64,000 nucleotides of DNA, from positions 75,636-139,635 of the forward strand of contig MHBK01000051.1 of assembly GCA_001804865.1 (NCBI GenBank). The letters run 5' to 3'. Position numbers and translations under genes: made by a program. The notes beneath the pieces were generated by a model. It had not been told where the DNA came from and did no database searches. It saw only the letters and a program-made list of their open reading frames with translations. How positions within the stretch are numbered: position 1 is the stretch's first letter; each line of letters begins with the position of its first letter. Shown in pieces: positions 40,249 through 57,383 of the stretch. Source of the DNA: Lentisphaerae bacterium GWF2_57_35. Lineage in GTDB: Bacteria; Verrucomicrobiota; Kiritimatiellia; CAIQIC01; GWF2-57-35.

Positions 40249-40515
40249 TCCACACCCCTTTTCGGATGAAAGTGAAGACTCAACACACAATGCCCCTAAA
40301 AAAATTCTCGCGAGTATAGGCAGTGATTCCGCCAACAGTCAACCAGCTTTCTTATTCAAACCGCCGGTTTTTTTGTCATGAAATCCCTCTCACGCAAACC
40401 CAGGATCGAAACGGCTGCGGGCGTCGCCCGCAGCCGGATTGCCGAATGCCGATTTCCGATGGCCGAATTTTTGTCGGCCCAATTTCTGCGGCGGGAGGAT
40501 GCCGTTCTGATTTCT

Positions 40516-40605
40516 ACTCATAATCTTAATCATAATCTTAATCGTAATCTTCATTTTCTTATTCAGAAAGAGATTAAGATTACGATTAAGATTATGATTA
40601 TGAGT
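40516..40605. repeat. Long imperfect hairpin built from TAATCN hexamer repeats (~30 bp stem, 6-nt bulge, ~21-nt loop), in an AT-rich 580-bp intergenic region
   Basis: 'actcataatcttaatcataatcttaatcgtaatctt-cattttcttattcagaaagag-attaagattacgattaagattatgattatgagt'. Confidence 0.75.
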
Positions 40606-40829
40606 AAGATAAGAAAAGACTTGCGCGCACGAGAGGCTCTTAATGGAAGGGAGGGCCTTCTTGCCCGCCATCGCAGCCAGGAATGGCTGCGGTCCTTTAA
40701 CAAACTCCCAATGAGTCCAAGCCTGAGTCATAATTACAGTTGTTGTGACGCCAAAACCTTCTATTGCCAAGCCATCCGTTTGGGGGTATTTAATAACTAC
40801 AAGGGTCGCCAAGCTGAAAGGTGTGTTCC

Positions 40830-43800
40830 ATGTTCAAAGTAAAAACCATTCTTCTCGCCGTCTTGCTAGCTACAATATGCTATATGCCAAGCTCTTATGC
40901 TCAGACTTCCGTTTGGAGCGGGATGGCGGTGGTCGGGCAATTTAATGGCTGGCATACCACACCTAATATGATGCTCATCGCCAATAACACATGGCAATCA
41001 GAACATCAGCTATTTGTTGCTTCGAACCAGTTCAAGTTTGTCGCCAACAACAATTGGGTAAATCAATGGGGCGATACGAATCAAAGCATGAGACAAGTTC
41101 CCATTACAGGGATAGCCGAAGCTGTTGGTGGACACGACATTGTCATCACAAACGCGATACCTGGTCGCTATCTCTTTACCTTTGATGCTTCCACTCGGGA
41201 GTATAGCATCCAACGTCTTTACACCGATGCTTCCGGTGTAAATATAATTCAAAACTCCAATTTCGAACAAGCCGGCACTGCGCGTGAACGAGCCTCTCAT
41301 TGGCAATGGGGCTCTCCTGACAACCATGGCGGATACTGGTCCGATAACGCTCAACGCCAAGACTTTCGACGGCATAGTGGAACTTGGGCGGGGACCCTAT
41401 GCTCGCAACCAGTAACAAATGGCGACAAAGCTGGCGGTTGGTGGCAAGAAGGGCCGGCCACACCCGACCTGCAATACAAAGCCGCCGCTTGGTTTTGGGC
41501 GGACCCTACCTGGACGGCCGGCTCGATGATGATGAAGCTCGAATTCTATGACACCAACCAAACGTTGATAACTTATGCGTCCACATCGATCGACAGCATC
41601 ACGAACACCACCTGGAGAAAGCGACAACTCACCGCCGTCGCGCCCGCTAAGACCGCATGGGCACGAGTGGTAATCTTCATGACCGAAGTGGGCACTCAAG
41701 GTGCGATATGGTTCGACGACGTCGAATTGCGTCGCTATTCGACGCGCGAGCAGGATTTCAACTATTGGACCTCGTTTACAAACGAGTCCTGTCACAGCCT
41801 CGATTGGGAACTGTGTCCAGGACATGCAGAATACAACACCATCCCTCCCGAATCCCAAGCAGGCGTCTTCATGTCCGAATATGTCGAGGGCAGCAGCCAG
41901 AACAAAGCCATTGAGGTTTTCAATGGCTCAACCAATTCGATTGATCTTTCCACTACCTTCTACTATTTGCAGGGCTATAATAATGGCAGCCTCACCCCCA
42001 CCTACACCGTGCGACTCACCAATGGCATCATAGCTCCACAAGCCGTTTATATCGTTGCAAACCCATCGGCAAGCGCGGACATCCGCACCAATGCCAGTCA
42101 ACTTTATGGCTTAACCTTCAGCGGAGACGATTCGATTCTGCTGCGGCGCGACTCCAGCAGCGGCCCGATCATCGACCGGTTCGGTCGCGTCGGAGAAACT
42201 CCGGGCGCCGCCGGCTGGAACAGCATAACGACAGACCATACGCTAAGACGCAAAGCCACCGTCCGAAATGGCGATACGAATTATCTCGGGGCGTTTGACC
42301 CAAGCATTGAATGGGACGTATATCCCAAAGACGACTCCATTGGGTTAGGATTTCACCTGCTGGGACCTGGACCTGGCGGCTATACACCCAGCGGCCTCAG
42401 CGCATCTCTAGCCACCAACATCGGCAGCTTCCTGCAATCCGGAGATCTTTCCGATGGCGGGATCGGAACGGTTAGCTTCTGGTATAAGGCCGTCACCAAT
42501 ACGCCAGTCATGAATTATGCTATTCAAACCTCGCCGGATGGCACAGCCTGGACCGATGCCGGTTATATGGTGGACGTGAGCAGCACTTCATTCGAGTATT
42601 ATTCTCTCTACATCAACAAACCCGAGCATCGCTATGTGCGCCTGTACCACCTCGACGGCACTAATCGGCTGCTGATAGACGACATTCAGGTGGCCTACCC
42701 CAACACCGTACGGCGAACGGAGGATTTCAACATGTGGGATAGCCCCACCTATATAACCGAAGGCAACTATTCATTTAATGGTTGGTCGGTAAGCAACGCC
42801 AAAATTTCATCCGCTTACGCCCACGACAAAATCCTTTGCGCCTATGTAGCCACGAACGGATCCATTCAATCGCCCCTGCTGCCGGAAGGCGCCGGCGCCG
42901 TCAGCTTTTGGCTGCAAAGCCTGGCGAGCACTTCCCCCGTCGACATCAACGTGGAATTCTCGTCAGACGGCATCAACTGGACTACGGAACGGAGCATAAC
43001 GCATCCCAATAATCTTAGCGCTTTTTATTCCATATATGCCTATGCAACAAACCCGACCTACGTGCGGCTTTTCTACGTGGATAACCCAGATTATCCGAAC
43101 CACCCCTATGCCCTTTTCGATCAAGTCGAAGTCAGGCTTCCTGTTGTATATCGCTCTCAGAATTTCAACTCCTGGCCGCGACAAACCAGCTATTCGGATT
43201 CCGAATACCAAGGATGGTCGGTTCACGGGGCTGTAATCGGCACGTCCAATGCCCTGTCAGGTTTTTCTGCCCGTCTTGATAACACCTTCAGCAACCATGC
43301 TACGATCCGCACCCCGCGTTTTCAGGATGGCATCGGAACCATTACATTCCAGTATCGCAAATGGAGTGAATCCGAAACTGATCCACGGTATGAAATTCAA
43401 GTGTCAACCAATGGATCCGCATGGAATACCATCACCAACATGCTCATTACCAATGCAAGCTGGCAGGCCTTTTCCTTGTATTATTATAGCTACAGCAACC
43501 AATATCTACGCTTCTACCATCTTAGCGGAGCAGGACGGGCATTGTTCGATGAAATCAACATCGCCGTCCCCACGCCTCCGGCCAACGTGGAACTTTCCGC
43601 CTGGGTCGATCCGCAAGCCCCCTTCACCAATGATACGCCTCACATCATGTCCAGCGCCTATCCTTCGTATGGGGCTCAAAATATCAGTGTGACCGGTTAT
43701 TACCGCCTGGGAACCGCTGGAGCATTTACCGCCACCTCCCTGCAGTTGACGAACTACGTCCTCTATCGCAGCATGACCACCCTGCCGCCGCAACCGCCGG

Positions 43801-44741
43801 GAAGCGTCGTCCAATACTATATTCAATCCACCTTTAACGGTCCGGGGTCCTACCTGACCTCGCCCCAAACCTATCCCAGCAGCGGAACCAATGCGCCGTT
43901 AAGTTATACCGTACCACGCAGCCGGTCCGGACAGGTGTGGATCAATGAGCTTAGCTACATCAATTACTGGGAAGCCTTCTGGGATACCAATGAATTCATT
44001 GAACTTTGCGGACCAGCAGGCATGGATATTAGCGGCTGGACGATTGAATTGGTTTATGGAGATCAAGTCACTAATGCAACGGTCAATGGATACGCCCATT
44101 ATCGCGTACCCAATGGCATCATACTCAATGATGAGACAAATGGATTCGGGTTTTACACCGTTGGGGATGTTCAGTGGGGCGAATTGATGGATCAATATTT
44201 CACAAATCTAACTAAAGAGGGTTGGGCCGAGAATAATTTTGCCGATGGCAATCCAGATGGTGTCCGAATATGTAATGAAGTGGGCGGCATCGAATATGCA
44301 TTGTCATATGGAGGCTATATCCCAAACTTTCAACGTATCGTGCAGAACCAAACTTGGGAAACAGTATTAATGCTAGCGCTTAAAGGCACAGGATCGGTCT
44401 TCACCAATTTCACATTTGCATTAACCAATGGAACTCCGGGGAGAATTAATGCAGGGCAAACACTGATCCCGCCTCCCGAACCGCCTGAGTATCCTCCTAC
44501 GGTGGATCTTGTCAGAGTTGTAATAGGCACTAACATTACGATCACAGCATACGGGAACACAAACTCGCCCTCATGGGCAGTGCAACCCTACTACACCACG
44601 AATCTACCGTTAAACAATCCGCAGTGGCTCGCCGTCTCGCCATTCTTCAGCACCTATGCCGGAGGAACAAACGTCATCTGGTTTGACCGGCATACTAATG
44701 GACAAGTGTACTTCTACCGGGTGCTGCTAACGAAGCCGTAA
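40830..44741 (+). CDS. Large secreted surface protein with two lamin-tail domains (LTD)
   Basis: Signal peptide 'MFKVKTILLAVLLATICYMPSSYAQ'. LTD-like blocks 'AGVFMSEYVEGSSQNKAIEVFNGSTNSIDLSTTFYYLQGYNNGS' and 'SGQVWINELSYINYWEAFWDTNEFIELCGPAGMDISGWTIELVYGD'. The codon usage is visibly AT-richer than the core. Confidence 0.8.
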   Translation: MFKVKTILLAVLLATICYMPSSYAQTSVWSGMAVVGQFNGWHTTPNMMLIANNTWQSEHQLFVASNQFKFVANNNWVNQWGDTNQSMRQVPITGIAEAVGGHDIVITNAIPGRYLFTFDASTREYSIQRLYTDASGVNIIQNSNFEQAGTARERASHWQWGSPDNHGGYWSDNAQRQDFRRHSGTWAGTLCSQPVTNGDKAGGWWQEGPATPDLQYKAAAWFWADPTWTAGSMMMKLEFYDTNQTLITYASTSIDSITNTTWRKRQLTAVAPAKTAWARVVIFMTEVGTQGAIWFDDVELRRYSTREQDFNYWTSFTNESCHSLDWELCPGHAEYNTIPPESQAGVFMSEYVEGSSQNKAIEVFNGSTNSIDLSTTFYYLQGYNNGSLTPTYTVRLTNGIIAPQAVYIVANPSASADIRTNASQLYGLTFSGDDSILLRRDSSSGPIIDRFGRVGETPGAAGWNSITTDHTLRRKATVRNGDTNYLGAFDPSIEWDVYPKDDSIGLGFHLLGPGPGGYTPSGLSASLATNIGSFLQSGDLSDGGIGTVSFWYKAVTNTPVMNYAIQTSPDGTAWTDAGYMVDVSSTSFEYYSLYINKPEHRYVRLYHLDGTNRLLIDDIQVAYPNTVRRTEDFNMWDSPTYITEGNYSFNGWSVSNAKISSAYAHDKILCAYVATNGSIQSPLLPEGAGAVSFWLQSLASTSPVDINVEFSSDGINWTTERSITHPNNLSAFYSIYAYATNPTYVRLFYVDNPDYPNHPYALFDQVEVRLPVVYRSQNFNSWPRQTSYSDSEYQGWSVHGAVIGTSNALSGFSARLDNTFSNHATIRTPRFQDGIGTITFQYRKWSESETDPRYEIQVSTNGSAWNTITNMLITNASWQAFSLYYYSYSNQYLRFYHLSGAGRALFDEINIAVPTPPANVELSAWVDPQAPFTNDTPHIMSSAYPSYGAQNISVTGYYRLGTAGAFTATSLQLTNYVLYRSMTTLPPQPPGSVVQYYIQSTFNGPGSYLTSPQTYPSSGTNAPLSYTVPRSRSGQVWINELSYINYWEAFWDTNEFIELCGPAGMDISGWTIELVYGDQVTNATVNGYAHYRVPNGIILNDETNGFGFYTVGDVQWGELMDQYFTNLTKEGWAENNFADGNPDGVRICNEVGGIEYALSYGGYIPNFQRIVQNQTWETVLMLALKGTGSVFTNFTFALTNGTPGRINAGQTLIPPPEPPEYPPTVDLVRVVIGTNITITAYGNTNSPSWAVQPYYTTNLPLNNPQWLAVSPFFSTYAGGTNVIWFDRHTNGQVYFYRVLLTKP

Positions 44742-45017
44742 AGGAAGAGAAGAGGAGTCCAAAGACCAAGGGGGGCATTTCCGGCGCGTGTCGGCGGCTT
44801 TTGTCATCCAGCTCGTGCGGGACGGAGTGGCGCAACCGGCGCAGACCGCCAAAACGGCGCTGGCCAGAAGAAGTAAGGAACAGCGGATTGGTGACTTTTC
44901 ATTTTCTTGTGGGAGAAAAAAAGGACGGGGGTACATGAAGTAGTTGTTCTCTCCAAGTTGTTATCGACGTAGTGATTCTTTTGTGGCTGAATGGCCGCAG
45001 GTAAAGGGGGTGGGGAA

Positions 45018-46466
45018 ATGGTTCAGAAACTTAAGCGCCTTATGGGGCGTGTGGACGTGCGCTTGTTGGTTCTGTTGGCGATAGGGGTTCTGCTGGGAAC
45101 TTTAACGTGGGCTGCCGTGCAGTTGACGAAGGATCAGACAGACGACTTCGATGCCCGGACGCTCAACACTTGGCGAGATTTGATCACTGAATTCACGGCC
45201 ATCCGCGAAACTGCTTATCCCTTGGTTATACCGGCTCTGCTGCCCGACGAGTCCTCGATAGATTGGGCGGCCCTCCAAAATGACGATCCCGAATGGTATT
45301 GGGATTTTGATGCGGGGACCTATTATTTCGACCCGGGTTCTGAAATCTCCAAGCAGATCCCGCACGATACCGACTTGCTGGTCTATGAAGACATTGCTGA
45401 AGAAGAACTTCTTATCCTGAGCGTGCCGAAGACCTCGGACGCGCCTTACAAAGAAGAAATGGTTTTCCGCGCGATGGCTTGGCCCCAGCCGTCAAAATTC
45501 GAGCGCTACCAACGTTACCTCGACCGCGAACTCTGCAAGCGCCGGATCGCCTGGCACATCACGCTGAAATCCCGCCGCCTGGCCGAGAAGGAAGAAACGC
45601 AACCAAGAATGTCCGCGCTCCTTGAAGAACCGCAGGCATTCCGTCCTGCGAATTCTTCCTCTATGCAAATGATGTCGATGGAGTCTTTAACCGAATTGAA
45701 AATCACCGGCATCAAAAAGATGAGCAACACTTGCGCCATCGAAATATCCTACCCATCGTCGTACTCAGGAACTTCTTGGTCTGTTTTCTCCTATGATATG
45801 CCCGCGTGCGTGTATACCAACGAGAGCGGCGGGAGTGGTGGAAATCCACAGCCCCCCACCAACGAAGCGCCCTGTGAAGGCTGCTCGACCTGCTACACCG
45901 ACCCGGAAAGAAGCTTCGCCGGACTGGACCGCGTCTGGATGCTCTCCGAAAGCAACCTCGTCTTGACCGGCGAGACCAGCACCGTTTGGCTCGATCCCCG
46001 GCCCATGGGCCTGGACACCAACGGCGAGCCCTGCCACCGCACCTATGCGGTGGGAGCCAATGCCGCCGATGAGGACAACGATCAAATCAGTTCGGCTTTT
46101 GAAATTTTCGCTCTCAAAACCAATCCTGCCATTTGGGATTCAGACGGCGACCAGATGCCGGACGGATGGGAACTCGCGAATGGGTTCAATCCGCTAAATT
46201 TTGCGGACGGGGCCTTGGACGCCGATGAAGACGGCTTGGCCAACTTTGAAGAATTTGCCTTGAAAGCGAATCCCCATAACAGCGCCGACGCCGCCAAGCT
46301 GCTGACGGAATCCCGCGCCAGAATCCAATCTTATTGGGCGGCCGTGAAGAATACGCCCTTGGTTTTCACCCATACTCCCGGCTCGCCGGAAGATCTGCTG
46401 GATCTGAAGAATGCCCTGATGGATCTTTCAGGAACCTTTAGCCGGGAAGTGGAGGTGCAACCGTGA
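45018..46466 (+). CDS. Membrane-anchored hypothetical protein with a C-terminal dockerin/TSP3-like double calcium-loop module
   Basis: The RBS 'aaggggg' precedes the internal ATG. Transmembrane segment 'VRLLVLLAIGVLLGTLTWAAV'. 'DSDGDQMPDGWELANGFNPLNFADGALDADEDGLANFEEFALKANP'. Confidence 0.6.
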   Translation: MVQKLKRLMGRVDVRLLVLLAIGVLLGTLTWAAVQLTKDQTDDFDARTLNTWRDLITEFTAIRETAYPLVIPALLPDESSIDWAALQNDDPEWYWDFDAGTYYFDPGSEISKQIPHDTDLLVYEDIAEEELLILSVPKTSDAPYKEEMVFRAMAWPQPSKFERYQRYLDRELCKRRIAWHITLKSRRLAEKEETQPRMSALLEEPQAFRPANSSSMQMMSMESLTELKITGIKKMSNTCAIEISYPSSYSGTSWSVFSYDMPACVYTNESGGSGGNPQPPTNEAPCEGCSTCYTDPERSFAGLDRVWMLSESNLVLTGETSTVWLDPRPMGLDTNGEPCHRTYAVGANAADEDNDQISSAFEIFALKTNPAIWDSDGDQMPDGWELANGFNPLNFADGALDADEDGLANFEEFALKANPHNSADAAKLLTESRARIQSYWAAVKNTPLVFTHTPGSPEDLLDLKNALMDLSGTFSREVEVQP

Positions 46467-48691
46467 AGCACCTTTTTCAAGCCCTCTTTGTAACCGCAGC
46501 CTGCTGTACTCAGACTCTTCAAGCAACGGAAACCAATCTCTATTACCATAACCGTCGCTTCGAACCGGTGGTTTTCAACAATCTGGCCAATCCCACGATC
46601 TATAAGGTGATCCAGGCCGGACGGGAGCTGACCGGCATTGTCGGACCTTTCTCCGTAAAGACTAATTATGCCAATGCCATCGAACGAGAAAGCCTTTCCG
46701 TTGGCATGTCGAACGCCCTGGACGCCTGGAATGCAGTGGTTCAGTGCAACCGATCGTTGCATCACCAAGGCGCCGTTTACGATAATGTCGGTTGGATCAA
46801 AGGAACGACCACCGCGTATGGAGATTGGGGCGGCTATTTCTGGTCGTTGCAGCAGACCATGAATTTCTTCTCCTCCACGTCCGATGTTTATGTCAGCAGC
46901 GCTGGGGTTACCAGCCGCATTGCCCGTGTTCTGGTCGGAAGCATCGGAGACTTTTCTCCTCAAGCTTACTGTTCGGTTGTCTGGCCTTCCATCGACACGA
47001 ATTTCCCCGGAGCGGGCGGCGTGTGGACGGAAGTGGTCTACCGGGCCGACTTCCAGGCCTATTACAAGCTGGCCCTGCCGATCACCCTTCAGCCGAATGT
47101 CAAGGACGGCGATGCCGACGGCATCCCGAATTTCGCCGACGGGTTCAACTGGGATGGAACTCCCGGCAATGCGGACGATCAGACCCCTGGTGAAGAATTC
47201 ATGCCGTGGGACATTACCTTGCCGACCTACGTCAGCGTCACGACCTCGACCTACATTCAAATCAGCTATTCCGCCTCCGATCCTTCCAGCCTGACCCGTT
47301 CAGGTCCTTCGACCAATTATGTGTACACTCCGGCCTCCGGCTTGCTGCGGCTTTGGACGAAACCCGAATCCGATCAACGCGTTCGGCTGGCGGTGACCAA
47401 TGCAGGCCACTTTGTTCCTGCCGCCATTTATGAGGCCACTGCTTTGGGTTTTTCTTCCTCCAAGAGGACCATCACCCTTTACGTGGAAGGCATAAGTCCG
47501 ACAGCCCTGTCCAGCCTATGCCTTGACTTCAGCACCAATCGAACTTATCACAACGGTTACTGGAACTATTATTGGACGTACTTGGATAGAGCTCAGGCGG
47601 AGATCTTTAGAGTAGAACTGCTTTCCGACAAAGCGGTGAATTCACCAAAGGAATTTACCCTTAACCAACCAGTGGATGATTCGTGCGAGTTTGCATACGG
47701 TTCCGACAGCCAACGGCAGGAACTGGAGGAGTTGGAGCAGAAGAAAATTAATTCGTCACTGACCATCTACTTTAAAGATGCATCCGATATTGCGGGCAAT
47801 GTCTTGGATTTCGATGTGATGTTACGTGTCTCGCCAACAAACCTACAAGGTGTTACTTGGGAAAAAGTATGGGGACCTGCAAATTCGGGCACGCTGATTG
47901 ATGCAAACAAAGCCGTTGCTATTTTCAGAAATCCCACCAAGGGCGGAAAATACATTTTTGATGTAACACTGCCGGATGGAGATAAGGTTCGTACACAGCT
48001 CTGGCTTCCAGTAAGCGGCCCAGACATCTCAGAGAATTTCCAAAACGAAGTTGATTATATCAAGTCCGACTGGGGGCCGAGATACCAGAGCAACTTCGGT
48101 GTTCGATATGCGGCATTGGCACCGCCTTTTCTTGAACTCTCTCCGGCTGCCGTCGTTGCCTTCACCTTCAACATGAAGATTGATGATATTTTGAGTTTCG
48201 GTTTGGACATGGACTACATTCTTCAGGCATACATAAACGACATCTGTGGTCTTGCCCATATTGCTGGCCCTAACTTTTCCGCAGGAGACAGAGAACGATT
48301 TACCCTGGCCGGGACTTCAAAACGGTATGTTATTGATTTTGCTAAGCGAAGTAACATGGGGTATGCAATGGCTGCAGCAGAAATCGGTCTTCAAGATATT
48401 ATTATTCTTGATGGCCCAGATCTTTATCTTAAATGGGTTGGGGACGAAGTGGGTTCGAAGGACACGCCTGCCGCTAAGGAGTCATATCGTGCGGGGATCG
48501 ATCTCATCAAGAACGACAAGACGCTCTCGGAGGTTATGGATCAAAGGGGGATTTCAATGCAGGAAGCGAACACGCGTGTTCGCAAGGAATGGCCACAAAT
48601 CAATCTTGCACTGTTTCCGTACATAAAGCTCGAAGATGAAGCACCAGCATACACTAAGCAAAAAATGGAGGCATTGACTGTTTCACCATGA
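46463..48691 (+). CDS. Secreted hypothetical protein (742 aa). There is an abrupt drop in GC within the gene at ~47.5 kb.
   Basis: Signal peptide 'MKHLFQALFVTAACCTQTLQA'. One calcium-loop 'KDGDADGIPNFADGFNWDG'. The start overlaps the upstream stop (GTGA). The C-terminal ~400 aa are encoded by markedly AT-richer DNA. Confidence 0.6.
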   Translation: MKHLFQALFVTAACCTQTLQATETNLYYHNRRFEPVVFNNLANPTIYKVIQAGRELTGIVGPFSVKTNYANAIERESLSVGMSNALDAWNAVVQCNRSLHHQGAVYDNVGWIKGTTTAYGDWGGYFWSLQQTMNFFSSTSDVYVSSAGVTSRIARVLVGSIGDFSPQAYCSVVWPSIDTNFPGAGGVWTEVVYRADFQAYYKLALPITLQPNVKDGDADGIPNFADGFNWDGTPGNADDQTPGEEFMPWDITLPTYVSVTTSTYIQISYSASDPSSLTRSGPSTNYVYTPASGLLRLWTKPESDQRVRLAVTNAGHFVPAAIYEATALGFSSSKRTITLYVEGISPTALSSLCLDFSTNRTYHNGYWNYYWTYLDRAQAEIFRVELLSDKAVNSPKEFTLNQPVDDSCEFAYGSDSQRQELEELEQKKINSSLTIYFKDASDIAGNVLDFDVMLRVSPTNLQGVTWEKVWGPANSGTLIDANKAVAIFRNPTKGGKYIFDVTLPDGDKVRTQLWLPVSGPDISENFQNEVDYIKSDWGPRYQSNFGVRYAALAPPFLELSPAAVVAFTFNMKIDDILSFGLDMDYILQAYINDICGLAHIAGPNFSAGDRERFTLAGTSKRYVIDFAKRSNMGYAMAAAEIGLQDIIILDGPDLYLKWVGDEVGSKDTPAAKESYRAGIDLIKNDKTLSEVMDQRGISMQEANTRVRKEWPQINLALFPYIKLEDEAPAYTKQKMEALTVSP

Positions 48692-49164
48692 AAACTATGA
48701 ATATCATTGTTGCGGTTTTGGGTCTCACTTTCTTGGCCTATTTTGCCGTTGCTGATGACTGTGATGTCCAGCCTTTCGTGGATAACGTGAATCAGGAGTG
48801 GATTGCGCGCGACTATCCGGAAATACTTGCTCTAATTGATGCAAGACTATCAACTTGCACCAATGACATTTTAGCTTTGGGCATAAAAATTGAGTACTTT
48901 GGCTTGGCAGTCGTGAATCTCTCGCAGGCTCGGTCGGCAGCGAGCAACTTCCTCGCTGCTGTTCAGGCCGTAGCCCCAGAAGAAATTACCTCGCCAACGG
49001 CTCTGACACAATACGCAATATCTATTGCTAGCATCACAGTGCCGACAAACTATGTTGATGTTTCGCGTACATCGAACCAAGTGGAATACGTGCACAGGAC
49101 ATACTCTTCGGCGTTCCCTCGTATTGAGCGATACGTGGATTTTGTTGAACGCCTAAATCAATAA
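48688..49164 (+). CDS. Small secreted hypothetical protein (158 aa)
   Basis: Signal peptide 'MKTMNIIVAVLGLTFLAYFAVADD'. The ATGA overlaps the upstream gene. Shares the motif 'SITVPTNYVDVS' with the next gene. Confidence 0.55.
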   Translation: MKTMNIIVAVLGLTFLAYFAVADDCDVQPFVDNVNQEWIARDYPEILALIDARLSTCTNDILALGIKIEYFGLAVVNLSQARSAASNFLAAVQAVAPEEITSPTALTQYAISIASITVPTNYVDVSRTSNQVEYVHRTYSSAFPRIERYVDFVERLNQ

Positions 49165-49175
49165 TCTCTAACCCT

Positions 49176-50372
49176 ATGAAAACGAATAAGCGAAACTTAA
49201 TGATCGGGAATCAAATAGTGACCGCTTGCTGTGGGGTCCTGGCCTTCCTCTCAGTTCCTACGGCCGGTTTTTCTTCTATCCTTCAGGAGCGTCCCGGTCT
49301 CGGACGATGCGAGACGGCCGTTTCGAATATGCTTTGGACTCAGAAAGCCGTCACGGAGCGATGTTGGGCCGCCAATCGCACTCCGCCAATCAATGGTTGC
49401 CGTGACGTGGCGAGTTTAAAAAGCGAAGTGAAACTCGTGGCGCCTAAATTTGTGATTCCCAACGTCAATCCGCAAACATGGCATAATACCGTCTGCAACT
49501 TTCTTCCGGGTCCTCTGGGAAGCGGTTATCTGCCCGTGTATAAGTCGCAACGGCCCGCCAATACGGTTGCCGGATTCTTATCTGCTTTGAGCCTTCCAAC
49601 GAATTATTTGGATGTCTCAAGCTGGCGTGTGGCGGGTTTACAAGATACGAATTGGAATGACGTGATGCGATGTCTTACAAGCTTGCAGAAGACTGTGCAT
49701 GATTCTTCATGGGGTAATGGGGTGGAGAAGACGTATCTTCGATGGGAAGACCAGACCGGATGGAAGGTGGACAATACGACGAGAGCGGTACAAGGTGCAG
49801 GTCCTTATGTCTGTACGAGGACGAGCATCTTTGTTTTGGACGGCTACTGTAACGATTGGACTATTATAAGGGATGCCAACGGGCGCTATACACATGTCAC
49901 CTGTTATGCCTATCAACAAGTCGAAAACTTAACGGCTCAATTGAGCGGAGAGATCAGCCTTTTTGTGTGGATAGGGACAAATCCTTTTTATCATTTTGGC
50001 GATGGAGGCTACCTTCAAGGAAATAGAGCGCGGTTCAATAACTGGTGCTTGAGCAGTAAAGCCACAAACGCAACCAGCGTAGTTTCCTCGGCGATGCTTG
50101 GTTATCAAGATTCGCCGCCCGGCTCGTTTCCGCCTATCCCAACTCCGTCTTGCCGGGGCGATTTGTGTTTGGGGAACAATGCTTACGATCTGTACTCAAG
50201 TCTTGGATGCAACACATCGGAACCGCTCTTGGTCGATTGCATGCCCATTCCTTGCGTATGCGAGTCGCAACGTGATGCCTGGCGCCAATGGTATAACGCT
50301 TTGAACTCAGATTATTTTAATAGCGATGTGCGTCCTTATGCGGTGGTATCGTGGGATTTTACCTATAAATAA
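49176..50372 (+). CDS. Cysteine-rich secreted hypothetical protein (398 aa, ~17 Cys)
   Basis: N-terminal hydrophobic segment 'IVTACCGVLAFLSVPTAG'. Many spaced Cys. Motif 'LSLPTNYLDVS' shared with the 158-aa protein. Confidence 0.55.
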   Translation: MKTNKRNLMIGNQIVTACCGVLAFLSVPTAGFSSILQERPGLGRCETAVSNMLWTQKAVTERCWAANRTPPINGCRDVASLKSEVKLVAPKFVIPNVNPQTWHNTVCNFLPGPLGSGYLPVYKSQRPANTVAGFLSALSLPTNYLDVSSWRVAGLQDTNWNDVMRCLTSLQKTVHDSSWGNGVEKTYLRWEDQTGWKVDNTTRAVQGAGPYVCTRTSIFVLDGYCNDWTIIRDANGRYTHVTCYAYQQVENLTAQLSGEISLFVWIGTNPFYHFGDGGYLQGNRARFNNWCLSSKATNATSVVSSAMLGYQDSPPGSFPPIPTPSCRGDLCLGNNAYDLYSSLGCNTSEPLLVDCMPIPCVCESQRDAWRQWYNALNSDYFNSDVRPYAVVSWDFTYK

Positions 50373-50405: not shown

Positions 50406-50446
50406 CGAATTCCGAACGACCAAGGTGGGAGGTCATTCGGAATTCG
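50406..50446. terminator. Strong hairpin between the convergent operons; candidate bidirectional terminator
   Basis: 'cgaattccgaacgacc-aaggtggga-ggtcattcggaattcg' gives a 16-bp stem with one mismatch. Confidence 0.45.
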
Positions 50447-50463: not shown

Positions 50464-52854
50464 TCATTCATCCAAATATCTGAACTGCCGGACAAACATT
50501 TCGTGAATGTCATCACCATTGGGGAATGGATCCCGCCAAACCAGAGCCACGGCCCGACGTTCTGCGGAAATAACATCAAGGTCAGCGTCCCAATCACCAA
50601 TCGGCTCATTATCCTTGATAGCCTGAGCCACTACGACTACGGTGAAAAGGTTCTCCGTAGGATTGAAGGCCCGATACGTATTGCGTACCAAGGCATCGCG
50701 CTGATTGTTGTTTAAACTCTGAGCGCCGCCAGACATGGCCCCACCGACTTGCATGACGGAGACCCCCGCCCAACTGGCGGGACTGTCGAAACTGTCCAGC
50801 CCTTCGCGCCCCTCGTGCGACCCCGTTACGATTTGATCAATTAAAAAGTCGAGCGGCTCTGAGGCGCCATTCAAGACGTTCGTGTCGTCTGGCACAGGAG
50901 CTTCTGCGATACTCGCATTCTGAAAAATACTCCTTAATACGTTCGAATTGAGCGTACCCGGATGCACCAGGCCATTAGTCCAGAAACCGTTAACAATTCC
51001 TTGAGGCGCCAAGACTTTTGCCATAATGTTAGTCTGTTGATTGCCACAAAACCTATTAAGAAGCTCGATGCCTGCCGGCTCAAAAAGATTGATGGTCTTC
51101 CAAGGCTGGCCGATGCTGATAAAGCCAAAATCCGCTGGCGATTCTAAGTTTGCATCACGAACGTACAAAGAATATCCTTCGTCATCTCCGCCCGAAGCAG
51201 CAACTGAAGGATTTATCAAACCTGGCGACACAGGCGACGCAGCTGTCCACGCTGTGACTTCGTAGTTCATGCGAGGATCATTAACCTCCAGTCCCTTCTC
51301 AGCCAGAGAAACCGTGCCGTTCGCAGCAGCAGCAGTAAAGGAAAAAGGCAAAAAGACCAGCGCAGAAACGGAATCAGCTGTATCAGCGTTTCGTATAAGC
51401 TCTAACAAATTAACACGAACAAGCAATCGAAGACTATCATTTGCCGAGATCGGCAAGCCATTAGCTGTATATGTATAATCCCATTTCTGAGGTTTTCCAT
51501 CACTATAATCTTCGGTAAACATAATATCCTCAGATGGTGATATTAGCCCAACATTGGCTATTGTTCCTTGGGTCATATTCTGAAACGTAAAGGAAATCTC
51601 ACCTGACCCTAGAGGTCCAATTCCCAATCGGGGATTATTGGGCTTGAATCGATAGCCACCAAGTGCTGGCTTTCCAGGAAAGGGATACCAAGTTTCGATT
51701 GTCAGATTGACAACTAAGTTTGCCGTAAGCCCATCACTAGCCGTCGTCAAAGTGCCTTTGTAAATGATTTCATTAATCATCGGCACGGCCTCGGTGGAGA
51801 AAGAGTTTACATTAATGGGTATTCGATTTGTATCTCGAAAATCCATCAGACTGTCGGCCATCATATCCGCCACCGAAGCATCCATACCCCAGAAGTCAGG
51901 ACTGCTAAATATTTTCTTCGCCTGCGCTGCCGTCCATTTGTTAACATCGGGATTCACATCTTCCCATCCAAAAGCCTGCCAGCTTCCCGATCCCCAATCA
52001 AACCACCCCCGATAATAATTAAGGCTATAGGGCATCAAGTTGGAGAGCTTATTTGTATCCAGGGCAATCAAATCGGGGTTTTGCCAATTAGGACCATTCC
52101 CTTCCCCATCGTTGAAAGTAATTAACTCAGGGAAAGAGTCAAACCCATGATACCAGTTCCGATTTTGTATGAAGTTCACCAGAGCCACGGCTTCCGGCAA
52201 AGAACTCATGTCTACATCGCGAACGTTTTGCCTCTCGCTCGAAGGATTAAAGAGACCGCCCGCGTTGGGCATGGAGATCAGATTAGCATCCATGGCCCCG
52301 GAGCAATCCAGCACGACATAACCATACCGCCCGAGGATTCGTCTAGGGGATTCAGGATCTACCACATAAACCCACTGAGCGGGAAGGTTAAAGGGAGGAA
52401 GGCCATTTGTCAGAAGAACCCTGGCATTCAGTTGGGGCATCGTGGGGGGGAAATACTTCTTGGGAATCCAGTTAACCACTTCCCCTTCCAGCAACTTGAG
52501 GTTTCCCAAAGGGACCGCCTGGTTGGGAACCGAACCCACATGCCGCGACATAAGAACCGACTCGGTCAGGGAAGGAATAATCAAATTGCTATCCCATAAT
52601 GCATGGTCGTAATCGTTCATGGCGGCGTTCAACGCAGAACGGGCCAATTGACGACAACGGCTGAGTTCCAGAGCGGAATCCGCCACCAGTCGTTCCGTGC
52701 GCGTCAGCGTCAGCAAAGCCACAGCCATCATAGTTAAAATGCTGAGAAACCCCAATACCACCACTAAGGCAATGCCGTCGCGCCTGTTGATGTTGCTCCA
52801 CAACTGAATCGTCATAAGAATTCCTAGTGCCAATAATGAGCCGGATGGCTCCAT
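50464..52854 (-). CDS. gspK: GspK-like minor pseudopilin (unusually large, 796 aa)
   Basis: GspK-type N-terminus 'RRDGIALVVVLGFLSILTMMAVALLTL', which lacks the conserved Glu5. It is the last gene after the G-H-I-J-like series. The start may instead be the internal Met at 52815. Confidence 0.45.
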   Translation of the reverse strand: MEPSGSLLALGILMTIQLWSNINRRDGIALVVVLGFLSILTMMAVALLTLTRTERLVADSALELSRCRQLARSALNAAMNDYDHALWDSNLIIPSLTESVLMSRHVGSVPNQAVPLGNLKLLEGEVVNWIPKKYFPPTMPQLNARVLLTNGLPPFNLPAQWVYVVDPESPRRILGRYGYVVLDCSGAMDANLISMPNAGGLFNPSSERQNVRDVDMSSLPEAVALVNFIQNRNWYHGFDSFPELITFNDGEGNGPNWQNPDLIALDTNKLSNLMPYSLNYYRGWFDWGSGSWQAFGWEDVNPDVNKWTAAQAKKIFSSPDFWGMDASVADMMADSLMDFRDTNRIPINVNSFSTEAVPMINEIIYKGTLTTASDGLTANLVVNLTIETWYPFPGKPALGGYRFKPNNPRLGIGPLGSGEISFTFQNMTQGTIANVGLISPSEDIMFTEDYSDGKPQKWDYTYTANGLPISANDSLRLLVRVNLLELIRNADTADSVSALVFLPFSFTAAAANGTVSLAEKGLEVNDPRMNYEVTAWTAASPVSPGLINPSVAASGGDDEGYSLYVRDANLESPADFGFISIGQPWKTINLFEPAGIELLNRFCGNQQTNIMAKVLAPQGIVNGFWTNGLVHPGTLNSNVLRSIFQNASIAEAPVPDDTNVLNGASEPLDFLIDQIVTGSHEGREGLDSFDSPASWAGVSVMQVGGAMSGGAQSLNNNQRDALVRNTYRAFNPTENLFTVVVVAQAIKDNEPIGDWDADLDVISAERRAVALVWRDPFPNGDDIHEMFVRQFRYLDE

Positions 52855-53729
52855 TGCCCCGGCGTCATGATCGGGAAAATACGAGTCATTAGTACATTTG
52901 AATCGCGGATCATCAGTGAACGCCCTTTTCGCCAGACATCATCCTGGGAGCTCCCAACGTATAATAGATTCGCGCCGCCCTGACTGGCCGCTTCCGTGGA
53001 CGTAACTTGCAGATAAATGTCAATAGCTGCAGGATGCATGTCCGCATCATAAAGACCGGGGTATGTCTTGCTGCTTGAATAGGAACTGATCCCCCCTGAT
53101 TCCTCCTGCAACAAGACACCTTTCTGCGTATGCAGATACACGTCGAACCGGACAATATTATCGATCAGGACTTCGGGATTCCCACTCGCCACAGACAACG
53201 TCAGCCACCAATCTTTGTACAGGAGAGGATTATTCGCCGACGGCTGCAAGGGATCTTTAGAATTCTTATCCATCACATCGAAATTCCATGAAGAGCGCCG
53301 AAGTCGAAAGCGCTTGGATGCCACTAAATTATTCGTTGCTTGATATTCATTAACATCATAACACACAAGCTGATAAGCCCGGCCATCATCCTGATCACCG
53401 CCCGTCGTAACAAACCAGACCTCGTCGAACCCAAACCCGTTAGGATTTGCTCCCCACGACCCGGTTGTCTTGTCCACCGAATCCGCCTCGTGATAGAAAG
53501 CCAGACGTTCATTAATCACAGCACATTCAAGTTCGTGGCGGATGAGATCCAAAGCCGATTCAGCAGCGCCATTTCGCATGACCGTGGTCGTCCCTTTTTT
53601 AAACGCGTTCGTGGCTTCCGTAAAAACACGGGTTAGGGCCAGCATCAAAATGACCAGCACAACCATGGAGGCCAACACCTCAATCAGGGTAAAAGCATCC
53701 GTTTTTCGTGTCGTCCATGAACTTCGCAT
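52824..53729 (-). CDS. Prepilin-type minor pseudopilin in the GspJ position
   Basis: 'MRSSWTTRKTDAFTLIEVLASMVVLVILMLALT' is a class III signal / N-methylation motif. 301 aa. Called GspJ-like from its position before the GspK-like gene. Confidence 0.5.
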   Translation of the reverse strand: MRSSWTTRKTDAFTLIEVLASMVVLVILMLALTRVFTEATNAFKKGTTTVMRNGAAESALDLIRHELECAVINERLAFYHEADSVDKTTGSWGANPNGFGFDEVWFVTTGGDQDDGRAYQLVCYDVNEYQATNNLVASKRFRLRRSSWNFDVMDKNSKDPLQPSANNPLLYKDWWLTLSVASGNPEVLIDNIVRFDVYLHTQKGVLLQEESGGISSYSSSKTYPGLYDADMHPAAIDIYLQVTSTEAASQGGANLLYVGSSQDDVWRKGRSLMIRDSNVLMTRIFPIMTPGQWSHPAHYWH

Positions 53730-53733
53730 AAAA

Positions 53734-54288
53734 CTACCTCAGTGGGAGATATTCCCTGTAAAAGACCTTGCCGGGCGTGCCAGGGGTCTGTCCAGATGGG
53801 TACTGTCCGGGCCAAACCTGCAGACGGGCATATTTAAGTCCAGGATAAGCGTTCACCTCCGCGATACTAAACTTGTAAGTGAAATATGCGGCTTTGATAT
53901 TCCCATCTAGCCAAACGTCACCGGCATAGAAATTAGGGATCCAGTAATACGGATTCTCTACCTCGATCACACCGCTGGGAACGATAATCGGTTGCAGGTT
54001 TGTGTTCATGGAATGTGATTTCATCAACTGAAAGGAGCCGCTTGTCTCAAAGTCATCCCACAGTTCATTCGTATTGGCCGCTTCAAAATCAAGGCTGCTG
54101 AAAACATAATCGGCAAAGGCGGCAACTTCCGTGTCGTCCACCGCTGCCCGGGTGGCATTCAAGCCTTCGGGGAAAAGGCCGAAAACAGCCAACAAGCCGA
54201 TGGCGACAACCAGGAGAGCCAGACTTACTTCGACCAATGAGTATCCGGCATCCTTTCGAATAGAGTCTATTGTGGCATGCATATTCAA
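53734..54288 (-). CDS. Prepilin-type minor pseudopilin in the GspI position
   Basis: 'KDAGYSLVEVSLALLVVAIGLLAVFGLFPEG'. 184 aa. Confidence 0.5.
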   Translation of the reverse strand: MNMHATIDSIRKDAGYSLVEVSLALLVVAIGLLAVFGLFPEGLNATRAAVDDTEVAAFADYVFSSLDFEAANTNELWDDFETSGSFQLMKSHSMNTNLQPIIVPSGVIEVENPYYWIPNFYAGDVWLDGNIKAAYFTYKFSIAEVNAYPGLKYARLQVWPGQYPSGQTPGTPGKVFYREYLPLR

Positions 54289-54971
54289 AAGTTCATATTT
54301 CCTATGTCTATTTCCACCTGCCCGGTCTTCCCCCTGACACGTATCCGGTTCGTGATGCCCGGCACGGACAACCGTTCCTCCAAGTTGTTGCCAGCCGCAT
54401 TGGGCTCATAAAACTTGGAAGTCGTCAGAAAAACACTGACGGGCACATCCCCCCAAGATGCGCCTCCATACTTATAACCATGCCCATTGGGTTTGAAAAG
54501 GATGGCTGCCATGTCGCGGCGTGCATCGCTTTCTGCCGGGAAAGGCAAGGGGAAGCTTGTCCCAAAGACCTGACCAGTCAATGAACTGTTAGTCAAAATA
54601 TAAACCCCGGAGGGAAGATACTTCCATGAAGACAGATACACAAAATTAGTCACTGTTTTGGTTTCGTTGGTTAGAGCCATGACCACATAACCCTGAAGGC
54701 ATTTATTGAGATTTTCAGAGCTATAAGTTCCATCCGAAATGGAGGGAAAGGCAACAAAGACCCATTGACGTTGAGTGACTGCATGCTGCCGAGCCAGACG
54801 AAGAGTTGTGGCCAATTCGGTGGAAGCTCCATTGATATCCTTTTTCCCGAACGTTTCGAACACCGGCATGGCGACGACGAACAGCAGGCTGATGATGGCA
54901 ATCACCACCAGCAGCTCGATGAGCGTAAAGGAACTTCTGTCTTTGCGTGTTAGATCCATATTCATTACCAA
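54285..54971 (-). CDS. Prepilin-type minor pseudopilin in the GspH position
   Basis: 'RSSFTLIELLVVIAIISLLFVVAMPVF...ELATTLRLARQHAV'. 228 aa. Confidence 0.5.
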   Translation of the reverse strand: MVMNMDLTRKDRSSFTLIELLVVIAIISLLFVVAMPVFETFGKKDINGASTELATTLRLARQHAVTQRQWVFVAFPSISDGTYSSENLNKCLQGYVVMALTNETKTVTNFVYLSSWKYLPSGVYILTNSSLTGQVFGTSFPLPFPAESDARRDMAAILFKPNGHGYKYGGASWGDVPVSVFLTTSKFYEPNAAGNNLEERLSVPGITNRIRVRGKTGQVEIDIGNMNF

Positions 54972-55480
54972 CTCGTCAAATTATCGTTGGTGGTCGCATC
55001 CTGCCCATCCGGCCCGGAGGACCAAGCAATGACGGGAGCCAGCACCGCGTCGATTCCCCCGCCGGGAGGGACAATTCGTCCGTCGCGGGTCGCATCGAAT
55101 CTCACCTTGTAGACATTGCCCCACGGATCGACAAAATCGTTGGCGGAGTTTAAAGCGGATTCGTCCGGCTCAAAAAATACGATTCTTTTAGGATTCCGGG
55201 GGTCGGAGGTCTTGAAATAAGCCCGCAACATGAGCACAACCTCGCCGTTCATAGCGTAATCCAATTCGTTTTGAACAGGCCAAATCCCGTATTCATTGAA
55301 GTACTTCATCCACACCGAGGCCAGCAGCTTGGCGTCGGCCTGAGCCTGAGCTTGCTCCCCTTTTTTGATCATGGTGTTGATGGCCGGCATGAGAAGCGCA
55401 GCCAAGATGGCCAAGATGCCAATGACAACCAGCAATTCGATCAAGGTGAATCCATTTTTCGTTTCAGGTTTTTTTTTCAT
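54965..55480 (-). CDS. gspG: GspG-like major pseudopilin, paralog 4
   Basis: 'NGFTLIELLVVIGILAILAALLMPAINTMIKKGEQAQAQADAKLLASVWMKYFNEYGIWP' matches the T2SS GspG pattern (F-T-L-I-E-[LIVM], 'K...A..D...L..A...Y..D.G.YP'). Confidence 0.55.
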   Translation of the reverse strand: MKKKPETKNGFTLIELLVVIGILAILAALLMPAINTMIKKGEQAQAQADAKLLASVWMKYFNEYGIWPVQNELDYAMNGEVVLMLRAYFKTSDPRNPKRIVFFEPDESALNSANDFVDPWGNVYKVRFDATRDGRIVPPGGGIDAVLAPVIAWSSGPDGQDATTNDNLTSW

Positions 55481-56124
55481 GGGGGTGTAAAGGTCGTTAA
55501 GGCCCGGCTTATATCATAGCTAGCTTTGTTGTTGCTTCCCGCCGAGTTTCCGCCCGTGGGCGGACCATAGGACACGACGCCTACTTTGTGGCCAATTATT
55601 TCGACTATATTCCAAACCTGCAGGGGCGTCTGAAGTCGAGAAAACAAAATGACCGTGTCGGCGTCGGTATCCATGATAATTTGATAAGGATTGCCCCAAG
55701 GGTCGAGAAAATAGTTGTTGGCCGGGGTATAAGAGTCGCCGTTCATATCCACGCCCACCAACGATTCCTCGGGGATTTGCAGGTAGACCTTACGATTGGG
55801 ATTATTCGTCGTATCGCGGGCGGTCAGAATATTCATCACAATGCTCTGATCGTCCGGAGTGGAATTACCAGGCAACTGCTTCATGCCGTAGTCGGAATCC
55901 TGACTGCCATTTCGGCCCGGGGCGGGCATGAACCCATAGTCCTTGTAATAAGACAAAATGGCGGTCTTTATATTGTTCATCTCCGTCTTGGCGCGGGTGA
56001 TGTCCGCGCGCTTCATGGCGGCATTGATCGCGGGAAACAACAGCGCGGCCAGCACGGCAATAATGCTGATGACCACCAGCAATTCGATTAGCGTAAAACC
56101 CCTTCGATTTGTGTTTAAGCGCAC
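55477..56124 (-). CDS. gspG: GspG-like major pseudopilin, paralog 3
   Basis: 'RGFTLIELLVVISIIAVLAALLFPAINAAMKRADITRAKTEMNNIKTAILSYYKDYGFMPAP'. Confidence 0.55.
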   Translation of the reverse strand: MRLNTNRRGFTLIELLVVISIIAVLAALLFPAINAAMKRADITRAKTEMNNIKTAILSYYKDYGFMPAPGRNGSQDSDYGMKQLPGNSTPDDQSIVMNILTARDTTNNPNRKVYLQIPEESLVGVDMNGDSYTPANNYFLDPWGNPYQIIMDTDADTVILFSRLQTPLQVWNIVEIIGHKVGVVSYGPPTGGNSAGSNNKASYDISRALTTFTPP

Positions 56125-56128
56125 GATT

Positions 56129-56803: not shown

Positions 56804-56867
56804 GACACGAACTTACCCTCCTAAAGTTTAAAAGTCCAGCGGCCTTTCCACGAGCCGTCCGCTAAAG

Positions 56868-57368: not shown

Positions 57369-57383
57369 GTCGCGGTCTCCAAT

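Follow-up and report, generated by a model that had tools for sequence, protein, structure and literature searches.

Does a change of base composition in the middle of a gene mark the point at which one protein module is exchanged for another? The question is raised by a 742-aa secreted protein encoded in a 64,000-nt stretch of contig MHBK01000051.1 from Lentisphaerae bacterium GWF2_57_35 (positions 75,636 to 139,635, forward strand; hereafter the window). A first-pass annotation, made from the sequence alone, had described a drop in GC content halfway along this gene, followed by two small secreted genes sharing a short motif, and had suggested a polymorphic toxin/immunity locus or another cassette-swap locus. 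We find an architecture of cassette exchange to be highly probable. The most likely mechanism, to which we assign a probability of roughly 0.55, is that a polymorphic effector exported by Sec is paired with an immunity-like protein in the periplasm. The exchange architecture of the early proposal has thus stood, whereas toxin and immunity are functions that we infer, no family of either kind having scored above threshold.

Organisation and distribution of the cassette

The part of the window between 44.9 and 50.4 kb is a single translationally coupled operon with the gene order g1-g2-g3-g4 (Table 1). Because of the GTGA overlap between g1 and g2 and the ATGA overlap between g2 and g3, g1-g4 are read as a tightly coupled unit. 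The 491-aa ORF of g1 did not figure in the first-pass annotation. The 742-, 158- and 398-aa open reading frames (ORFs; g2, g3 and g4), their leaders, the Cys-richness and the ATGA overlap were confirmed in the sequence as first described, and a signal-peptide-like N-terminal leader is seen in g2, g3 and g4 alike. The g2 protein is identical to P0001, 'hypothetical protein DCZ95_12740 [Verrucomicrobia bacterium]'.

Table 1. Positions of the cassette and of its parts in the window.
Feature	Position	Strand	Remarks
g1	44991..46466	+	491-aa ORF; stop overlaps the start of g2; first gene of the cassette
g2	46463..48691	+	742-aa ORF, GTG start
g3	48688..49164	+	158-aa ORF; ATG overlaps the TGA stop of g2
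g4	49176..50372	+	398-aa ORF, ~17 Cys; fourth gene of the cassette
Constant segment	44911..46180	+	upstream leader and g1 codons 1-~400; DNA 86-89% identical to L018 and L021
g2 Sec signal peptide	46463..46528	+	aa 1-22, ...TLQA↓TETNLYYH; AXA-type site directly before the first conserved residues
g2 module A	46523..47092	+	aa ~21-210; beta-rich, motifs YDN.GW.KGT and VLVG[ST]LGD
g2 acidic linker and module B	47093..47587	+	TSP3-like linker DGDADGIPNFADGFNWDG; aa ~211-375
GC3 change-point	47606 (codon 381)	+	unbiased change-point scan, z=4.8
g2 module C	47588..48688	+	aa 376-742; swappable C-terminal module, putative effector
PKD/Ig-like beta-sandwich of module C	~47813-48007	+	aa ~451-515; follows a short N-terminal segment
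Helical alpha+beta domain of module C	48011-48688	+	aa ~517-742
PTNYVDVS motif in g3	49042..49065	+	P[TS]N[YFL] in 6/8 members of the module-C-specific g3 class
PTNYLDVS motif in g4	49596..49619	+	family signature; P141 invariant, N143 nearly invariant (alignment A5)
Inverted repeat CGAATTCCGAA / TTCGGAATTCG	50406..50446	.	perfect 11-bp arms, 19-nt loop; read from the sequence

The order g1-g2-small signal-peptide gene (g3)-optional gene-g4 recurs in about 20 loci; these come from contigs that encode homologs and, by pattern scanning, from GTDB genomes (7 loci) and JGI metagenomes (13 loci). The identified genomes that carry the cassette are all metagenome-assembled genomes (MAGs) of Verrucomicrobiota or Kiritimatiellae, two of which hold two cassettes each. 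The flanks vary from locus to locus and include housekeeping genes (L001, L004), the gap between scpA and scpB (L005), an integrase (L002) and an IS200/IS605 transposase (L027), and the cassette is therefore an autonomous unit. In L002 (1-5900 and 15794-17167) it stands among NYN, DUF6602 and DUF7380/EMARD_N genes and a tyrosine integrase, gene content that suggests a mobile or defence-island context for this copy. No extra or orphan copies of the cassette modules were found elsewhere in the window.

A constant carrier with exchangeable C-termini

Homologs of g2 (n=13) align with it over the N-terminal ~200-400 aa only (aa 1-~215 or 1-~400), and their C-termini are unrelated. That relatives would lack the same full-length protein, and that alignment of the N-terminal part would bring out alternative C-termini, is thus borne out. 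The clearest case is the pair P0003 and P0004, encoded in tandem in L005, which are 82% identical over ~390 aa and then unrelated. A profile search (HMMER, 1.84 billion representative sequences) retrieved 808 relatives of g2, modules A, B and C counted together, and these resolve three independent modules.

Module A is kept in all g2 homologs, is N-terminal every time and defines the family. It is beta-rich in the AlphaFold2 (AF2) model of the full-length protein, where it is predicted with moderate confidence (predicted local distance difference test, pLDDT, 65-83), and no match to it was found in Pfam, NCBIfam or PDB. The homologs in alignment A1 carry variable hydrophobic leaders with an A-x-A end just ahead of the conserved ETNLYH block; the cleavage site of g2 was read from the sequence and not with a dedicated prediction tool. 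Module B is optional, being present in some g2 homologs but not in P0008 or L017. It also occurs (query aa 210-350) in proteins of 1,000-6,400 aa, in 2-5 stretches, the largest of these proteins having 6,398 aa.

Beyond these modules the g2 family continues into a transglutaminase (Transglut_N 7e-16, Transglut_core 2e-11), a DUF6973 domain (7e-11), a reprolysin/M6-like domain with a HELGH motif (HExxH metalloprotease) or a region with a weak alpha/beta-hydrolase match. Judging from these matches, the variable C-termini look enzyme-like; an NCBIfam scan of the alternative g2 proteins gave no named toxin family. The 742-aa protein itself has no Pfam match at E<=0.1 and no NCBIfam match, and in sequence searches against PDB (742-aa protein, 398-aa protein and a module C profile) a PKD domain was the sole match. 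The C-terminus and the downstream proteins had been said to belong to no recognisable family, in agreement with the Pfam and NCBIfam scans, which gave no above-threshold matches. Modelling of full-length g2 from a 12-sequence alignment was of little help (AF2 pLDDT 43.5, C-terminal half unusable), and Foldseek searches with this model returned noise.

The compositional break coincides with the module boundary

The reported drop in GC content within g2 is real, but the figures of 58% and 44% given for it are peak and trough; the means are 55% before and 47% after the break. In a sliding window of 300 bp GC is 0.57-0.59 at 46.8-47.4 kb and 0.44-0.48 at 47.5-48.9 kb. Nor is the GC content at third codon positions (GC3) uniform across the gene, as had been allowed for: it is 0.647 over codons 1-340 and 0.481 over codons 341-742, and the change-point scan finds a step from 0.64 to 0.47 at codon 381. 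This codon is the junction of modules B and C, which was set independently by homology (boundaries aa 375-390). The genes downstream of g2 have GC3 values of 0.465 (g3) and 0.516 (g4).

Compared across 12 loci from source genomes of 46-62% GC, GC3 is higher in the N-terminal than in the C-terminal part of g2 in every one (means 0.61 vs 0.50, Wilcoxon p=0.0005); mean GC3 across family loci is 0.635 for g1, 0.495 for g3 and 0.525 for g4. Since the drop is repeated in 12/12 loci, we regard the compositional break as genuine and as a mark of the exchangeable part throughout the family.

Within the window itself the step is among the larger ones and not unique, as the GC3 steps in other long ORFs have z values of 4.8, 5.8 and 9.1. 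Furthermore, the window falls into two GC3 regimes, the first 40 kb at 0.65-0.81 and all genes of 40.8-64 kb at 0.51-0.57. The latter regime takes in secreted and surface proteins, pseudopilins and the cassette, and is not private to the cassette genes.

The partner g3 follows module C

The g3 protein is secreted and mostly helical, with a leader ending in ...FAVA↓DD. Homologs of g3 stand directly after module C in 6/6 loci examined, whatever the N-terminal architecture (L001, L026, L027, L028 twice and L029 with two copies; 25-46% identity, E 1e-8 to 1e-38). At four of these loci, L026-L029, the module C genes have N-termini unrelated to g2 (P0016, P0071, P0031 and P0158), and each time a homolog of the 158-aa protein is encoded immediately 3' (29-46% identity, E 1e-9 to 1e-38), the partner gene overlapping the stop codon in three of the four. 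L028 is a tandem array of two module C-partner units, and L029 has two partner paralogs in a row. The pairing, seen in all six loci with their differing N-termini, belongs to module C itself and not to the cassette backbone.

Co-variation of the two was found in a test of 276 locus pairs, in which both g2 tail and g3 were similar in 8 pairs, the tail only in 5, g3 only in none and neither in 263. All similarity between g3 proteins thus lies within the 13 pairs whose g2 tails are homologous (Fisher p=1.7e-12). Moreover, g3 is always more diverged than the tail that precedes it (tail vs g3: 80 vs 40%, 59 vs 35% and 54 vs 32%). Both downstream genes had originally been taken as matched to the C-terminus of g2. 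This holds for g3, by its co-variation and by the 6/6 loci, and not for the 398-aa g4.

Exchange between closely related strains

The most direct view of exchange is offered by L013 and L005, strain-level relatives whose flanks share 94-96% DNA identity. The layout of L005 is g1-g2a-g3a-(85-aa g4 remnant)-g2b-g3b-g4, and L013 is without the whole first unit and has a single one. The g2 of L013 is 94% identical to g2a until aa ~388 and from there on 91% identical to g2b, as would be expected if the repeated A/B modules had undergone homologous recombination with one another. The g3 genes of the two strains show no DNA similarity, forming a non-alignable island, and their products are 40% identical. 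Alternative or displaced units of C-terminus and partner, which the first-pass annotation had proposed to look for in relatives, are thus at hand in L005 compared with L013, in L028 and in L029.

A comparable boundary, at the end of a constant segment, lies in g1 of the window itself. By blastn, L018 6200-7418 corresponds to window 44962-46180 (89%) and L021 5305-6563 to window 44911-46151 (86%). The similarity starts ~50 bp before g1 and stops sharply at the TSP3 repeats. L018 and L021 come from the same metagenome; their flanks and remaining genes otherwise differ from those of the window, and their g2 proteins are ~40% identical to the g2 of the window, over module A only.

Fold of module C and a possible link to Ntox44

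Module C ends no more than 18 aa from the C-terminus in 30/30 relatives examined. Proteins that end in it have N-termini of TSP3, fn3, PKD or unknown type, and some copies of module C are standalone. Word-indexed homolog searches retrieved six proteins when module C was the query and two when its helical subdomain was, none of them annotated. Carriage by phages or viruses was considered and rejected, as module C is absent from IMG/VR.

The AF2 model of module C, built from 28 sequences (alignment A2), is confident (pLDDT 90.9, predicted template modelling score 0.89). Residues invariant in module C, which the helical domain carries, are W514, P516, G519, P520, W537, Y541, D584, K628, M632, D667, Y675, A677, M699, E709, W710 and P711, with R629 and N631 nearly invariant.

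The one lead to a described toxin family is Ntox44 (PF15607, 'Bacterial toxin 44'). Sub-threshold matches to it were found in at least five relatives with module C, at 13-19.5 bits against a Pfam gathering threshold of 24 bits. They are in constant register and cover profile positions ~40-103 over the module C core VIDFAKRNNMMYALIGREMG...AGFDL / DFAKRNNMMYALIGREMG...AGFDL. Like Ntox44, the helical part of module C is a C-terminal helical domain, and no immunity family is known for either; module C differs in being about three times longer and in including a PKD-like domain. The published motifs of Ntox44 are DxK, GNxxxG and DxxxD (PMC3482391). In module C, D584, K628, D667 and E709 stand in contexts other than those of Ntox44 (DFAKRxNM, i.e. 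DxxK), and GNxxxG was not seen in the helical domain.

The accompanying genes g1 and g4

The g1 protein begins with a hydrophobic leader or signal anchor, continues with a central domain and TSP3-type Ca-binding repeats (aa ~350-435), and has a conserved C-terminal region of ~80 aa. Its homologs are encoded directly 5' of g2 in 18 loci, with a 4-nt overlap in 15 of them. Matches of g1 to TSP3_bac, MtsD, CglD and Amuc_1099 are all sub-threshold and restricted to the TSP3 repeats (aa 342-433). Membership in Amuc_1099, MtsD or CglD was accordingly rejected, the scores being 21-35 bits against NCBIfam cut-offs of 50-800. In P0028 (1093 aa) a single chain starts with a g1-like N-terminus (aa 5-420) and later contains module C (aa 782-1081), a fusion that links g1 functionally to the effector. 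P0034 resembles a 5'-truncated form of the same architecture.

The g4 protein is Cys-rich and secreted, conserved over its N-terminal ~170 aa (F..RP..S...AVD.GTW...A..ER ... [LA]P[TS]NY[FL]D..PW) and variable in the remainder. Homologs lie 3' of g3 in at least 12 loci. The g4 of L021 is 47% identical to that of the window over the full length, though the g2 tails of the two are unrelated; g4 is a conserved cassette gene that does not track the g2 tail. No Pfam or NCBIfam domain was found in the g4 family, and no PDB match for the 398-aa protein.

The short motif said to be shared by g3 and g4 is present in both as PTNY[VL]DVS, in register, but the longer form S[IA].S[IL]..PTNY is not matched by the 398-aa protein. 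The signature [LA]P[TS]NY[FL]D..PW was found in 9 of 12 g4 proteins. Among 24 g3 proteins of all classes, the PTNY motif occurs in that of the window only. The question of whether the match would extend to a significant alignment was answered in the negative. BLASTP of the 158-aa against the 398-aa protein aligned 14 residues (E=0.005), and hhalign, comparing the profiles of the two families, gave a probability of 0.35% (E=0.17) over 17 columns, the motif only. Recent micro-duplication was rejected as well, the two DNA copies in the window being identical at 17 of 24 nt. The two genes are therefore neither homologous nor products of a recent duplication, and the motif, conserved independently in the g3 class and in g4, may serve both as a docking signal or may be shared by chance.

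Comparison with known systems

Polymorphic toxin systems include a Sec or 'T2SS' (type II secretion system) class, whose toxins carry a signal peptide only (Zhang, de Souza, Anantharaman, Iyer & Aravind 2012, PMC3482391). The cassette resembles them in its recombined C-terminal domains on a conserved N-terminus, in the small, fast-evolving and co-varying gene directly downstream, and in its tandem arrays, truncated remnants, extra partner genes, several copies per genome and foreign-looking composition. It differs in that none of the catalogued trafficking, repeat, pre-toxin, toxin and immunity domains is found here above threshold, in the lack of any annotation for modules A, B and C or for the g3 family, and in the extra conserved genes g1 and g4. 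Trafficking modules of the type V, VI and VII secretion systems (T5SS, T6SS, T7SS), Rhs or MafB-N were not found in g1, g2 or g4 with Pfam and NCBIfam.

Closest in operon logic to g1/g2/g3 are the MafA/MafB/MafI genes of Neisseria, which lie in MafB/MafI/MafA islands, reportedly described by Jamet et al. (2015, PLoS Pathog). The exported MafA encoded upstream resembles g1, MafB with its Sec signal, conserved N-terminus and polymorphic C-terminus resembles g2, and MafI, encoded directly downstream, resembles g3. Further points in common are that alternative C-terminal/immunity cassettes occur and that a genome may have several islands. In contrast, g1 is a TSP3-repeat protein and not a MafA-type lipoprotein, the partner here has a signal peptide, g4 is without a Maf counterpart, and the phylum is another. 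Nor are the two related in sequence, as DUF1020/MafB-N was not reported in the Pfam scan of the 742-aa protein (no match at E<=0.1).

CdiA-CT/CdiI and Rhs-CT/RhsI are similar in that effector and immunity gene swap as a unit at a conserved upstream sequence and in that displaced or 'orphan' units occur downstream. The cassette has, however, no TPS/FHA repeats, CdiB-like transporter, YD/Rhs shell, PAAR, VENN or PxxxxDPxGL junction, and the downstream unit of L005 is a full-length g2 and not an N-terminally truncated orphan. Pfam and NCBIfam gave no match to TPS/FHA, YD/Rhs or PAAR in g1, g2, g4 or the scanned g2 homologs. In periplasm-acting T6SS effector/immunity pairs (Tae/Tai, Tle/Tli) the partner has a Sec leader, as expected for an effector acting in the periplasm or envelope. 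The g3 partner likewise has one; the difference is that here the effector itself also has a Sec leader and that no T6SS components or linkage to PAAR, VgrG or Hcp were seen in the loci examined.

Interpretation of the cassette

Five features that characterise polymorphic toxins are found together here: a conserved N-terminus with a polymorphic C-terminus, a C-terminal module that occurs across architectures, a co-varying and fast-evolving downstream partner, tandem or displaced units, and exchange at the level of strains. The comparisons made here show these features directly, including an obligatory pairing of module C with g3 and recombination between strains. The mechanism that we favour may be outlined as follows. 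The g2 protein would be exported by Sec, with modules A and B as a constant carrier that probably works with g1, the TSP3-repeat protein fused to the effector in some organisms. Module C (~365 aa) would be the exchangeable, enzyme-like effector head, and g3, presumably exported as well, its cognate binding partner. Most likely, g3 would be an immunity protein or inhibitor that neutralises module C in the periplasm of the producer or in sibling cells. Homologous recombination within the conserved N-terminal sequences of g1 and g2 would bring in new units of effector and partner, duplicate them or remove them, and for that reason the AT-shifted, 'foreign' composition would start exactly at the module boundary. 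Module C may be toxic to competitors and g3 may protect against it, and g1 and g4 may aid in anchoring or export; the effector would also have to cross the outer membrane.

A number of observations weigh against this mechanism. All sequences come from MAGs or metagenomes. No toxin family scored above threshold for the window protein in Pfam or NCBIfam, and 11 g3 proteins (that of the window and those of 10 other loci) gave no known immunity family in the same databases. Foldseek searches of module C against PDB and BFVD matched the Ig/PKD part only (e.g. 2yrl) and left the helical domain without a match. Module C of the window has no Ntox44 match even at E<=10, and the Ntox44 motifs were not seen when the helical domain was inspected by eye, no motif search being run; with the scores of its relatives below 24 bits, Ntox44 is therefore a lead and not a membership. 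Neither a known delivery apparatus nor a pre-toxin junction motif was found, only Sec leaders, and g4 is a cassette member without an assigned role. The TSP3, PKD and Ig-like modules are no less typical of adhesins, and the same is true of the occurrence of module B in giant surface proteins. Finally, the co-variation of g3 with the g2 tail could in part stem from common descent of whole loci.

The alternative that survives best is a secreted enzyme with a dedicated helper, which we nevertheless consider unlikely. The C-termini would serve nutrient acquisition or remodelling of the envelope or matrix, and g3 would be a foldase, chaperone or pro-enzyme inhibitor, in analogy to the lipase-specific foldases and protease-inhibitor pairs. 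Transglutaminase, metalloprotease and hydrolase C-termini would suit such a role, g2 and g3 are exported to the same compartment, and secreted enzymes that degrade glycans and proteins are plentiful in the lineage. Although a dedicated chaperone, too, would be expected to show strict pairing and co-variation with module C, divergence is faster in g3 than in its client domain, and g3 forms an island that cannot be aligned between strains of 91-96% identity. This divergence, together with the g3 duplication in L029, the tandem arrays of L028 and the gain or loss of whole units between strains, is a hallmark of conflict systems and not of housekeeping secretion helpers.

Still somewhat less likely in our view is a variable surface adhesin or recognition system, in which g1 anchors g2 and the head, together with g3, sets a binding specificity with no toxicity involved. 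Kin recognition, attachment to hosts or particles, and evasion of phages or grazers by antigenic variation would be examples. TSP3 Ca-binding repeats, PKD/Ig-like domains and a module B common to giant multi-repeat proteins would all fit an adhesin, but the heads include catalytic-type domains (HExxH protease, transglutaminase core). The weak likeness of g1 to MtsD (cell-cell cohesion), CglD and the Amuc_1099 pilus-like proteins is limited to generic TSP3 repeats, far under cut-offs, and the pseudopilin operon that adjoins the window cassette is conserved as a neighbour at no other locus. Nor do adhesins normally need a co-varying secreted partner with an overlapping start. An ordinary multi-domain secreted protein, with a GC step due to noise or amino-acid composition and unrelated small genes behind it, would agree with the similar z values of other window genes, the GC3-poor 40.8-64 kb and the chance-level promoter and terminator scans, yet it is very improbable and is contradicted by the co-variation of g3, its pairing with module C in 6/6 loci and the L005/L013 recombination, besides a step that falls on an independent homology boundary and recurs in 12/12 loci, and a gene order kept in ~20.

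Within the reading of a polymorphic effector with an immunity-like partner, a more far-reaching version can be put forward tentatively, namely a phylum-specific system of antagonism between bacteria that has so far gone unrecognised. It would have its own Sec carrier (A/B, a g1 TSP3 stalk and the Cys-rich g4), and the helical domain of module C would be a new effector fold, g3 the first of a new family of periplasmic immunity proteins and PTNY a shared docking signal. The partner of PTNY would in that case be, for example, the carrier or an export/sorting factor.

Polymorphic effector/immunity loci are an already known kind; g1-g4 is a previously undescribed secreted-effector cassette of this kind from Verrucomicrobiota/Kiritimatiellae. 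It is new because carrier, effector and partner are unannotated, the effector has no structural match in two libraries, g1 and g4 are extra, and the phylum is under-studied. Literature searches returned nothing on DUF6973 or on the g1-g4 cassette.

Genomic surroundings

The inverted repeat downstream of g4 sits between g4 and a convergent gene for a 796-aa protein, a position in which it is possibly a bidirectional terminator closing the operon. A consensus terminator scan missed it and was at chance level overall, and both promoter and terminator scans of the window were no better than chance.

On the other side of the repeat, 50464-57422 (minus strand) is a prepilin-type (N_methyl) operon, convergent with g4. 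At their N-termini its prepilins match Verru_Chthon proteins A, B and C (TIGR02600, TIGR02598, TIGR02599) with scores that fall far short of the cut-offs, and from these matches the operon appears to be a divergent pseudopilin cassette. Membership of g1-g4 in a Verru_Chthon or type IV pilin-like system was rejected, as the TIGR02598-02600 matches lie in the minus-strand neighbours (50464-54288). Directly upstream of the cassette, 40821-44741 encodes a 1306-aa secreted protein with a lamin-tail domain (LTD; 2.8e-12), two F5/8 type C/NedA-like galactose-binding domains and an ExeM-like N-terminal region (3e-20). A link of the cassette to the pseudopilin operon or to this LTD protein was likewise dismissed, neither being conserved beside it elsewhere.

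In a 2168-aa ORF at 57454-63960 (minus strand), GC3 drops at codon 701 from 0.67 to 0.46, the strongest intragenic step of the window (z=9.1). This ORF has TSP3-like segments in common with g1 and one segment in common with the 1306-aa protein, and by these features may be another modular or recombining surface protein.

Two repeated elements were also noted. An AT-rich hairpin at 40511-40616, ~200 bp 5' of the 1306-aa gene, has 44-nt arms that are 86% complementary and TAATCTTA-like units. Similar sequence occurs in L008, L018 and L021, and the hairpin is therefore regarded as a lineage-wide repeated element. An intergenic GC-rich element of ~65 nt at ~21848-21918 (GGAGGGTTC...GACCCTCC) forms a long hairpin (-40.7 kcal/mol, z=-5.1). 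L021 holds copies that are 89-95% identical (3367-3497 and 12188-12251), and no Rfam match was obtained; the element looks like a repetitive extragenic palindromic (REP) or terminator-like repeat.

Implications

Verrucomicrobiota and Kiritimatiellae abound in soils, waters, sediments and guts, but to our knowledge almost nothing is known of how they compete. The cassette recurs as a well-defined genetic unit, public data containing 808 relatives of its 742-aa protein, and offers a testable pair of effector and partner. It shows a clear recombination mechanism for diversification, and the model of module C is of high confidence, with no structural analogue of the helical domain in the searched libraries (PDB, BFVD). 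If the effector is toxic, the cassette would add a new type of carrier, a toxin fold and an immunity family to the catalogue of polymorphic toxins, and would provide markers with which competition between strains could be followed in these phyla. Without toxicity, the cassette would still be a clean natural example of the swapping of a domain together with its partner.

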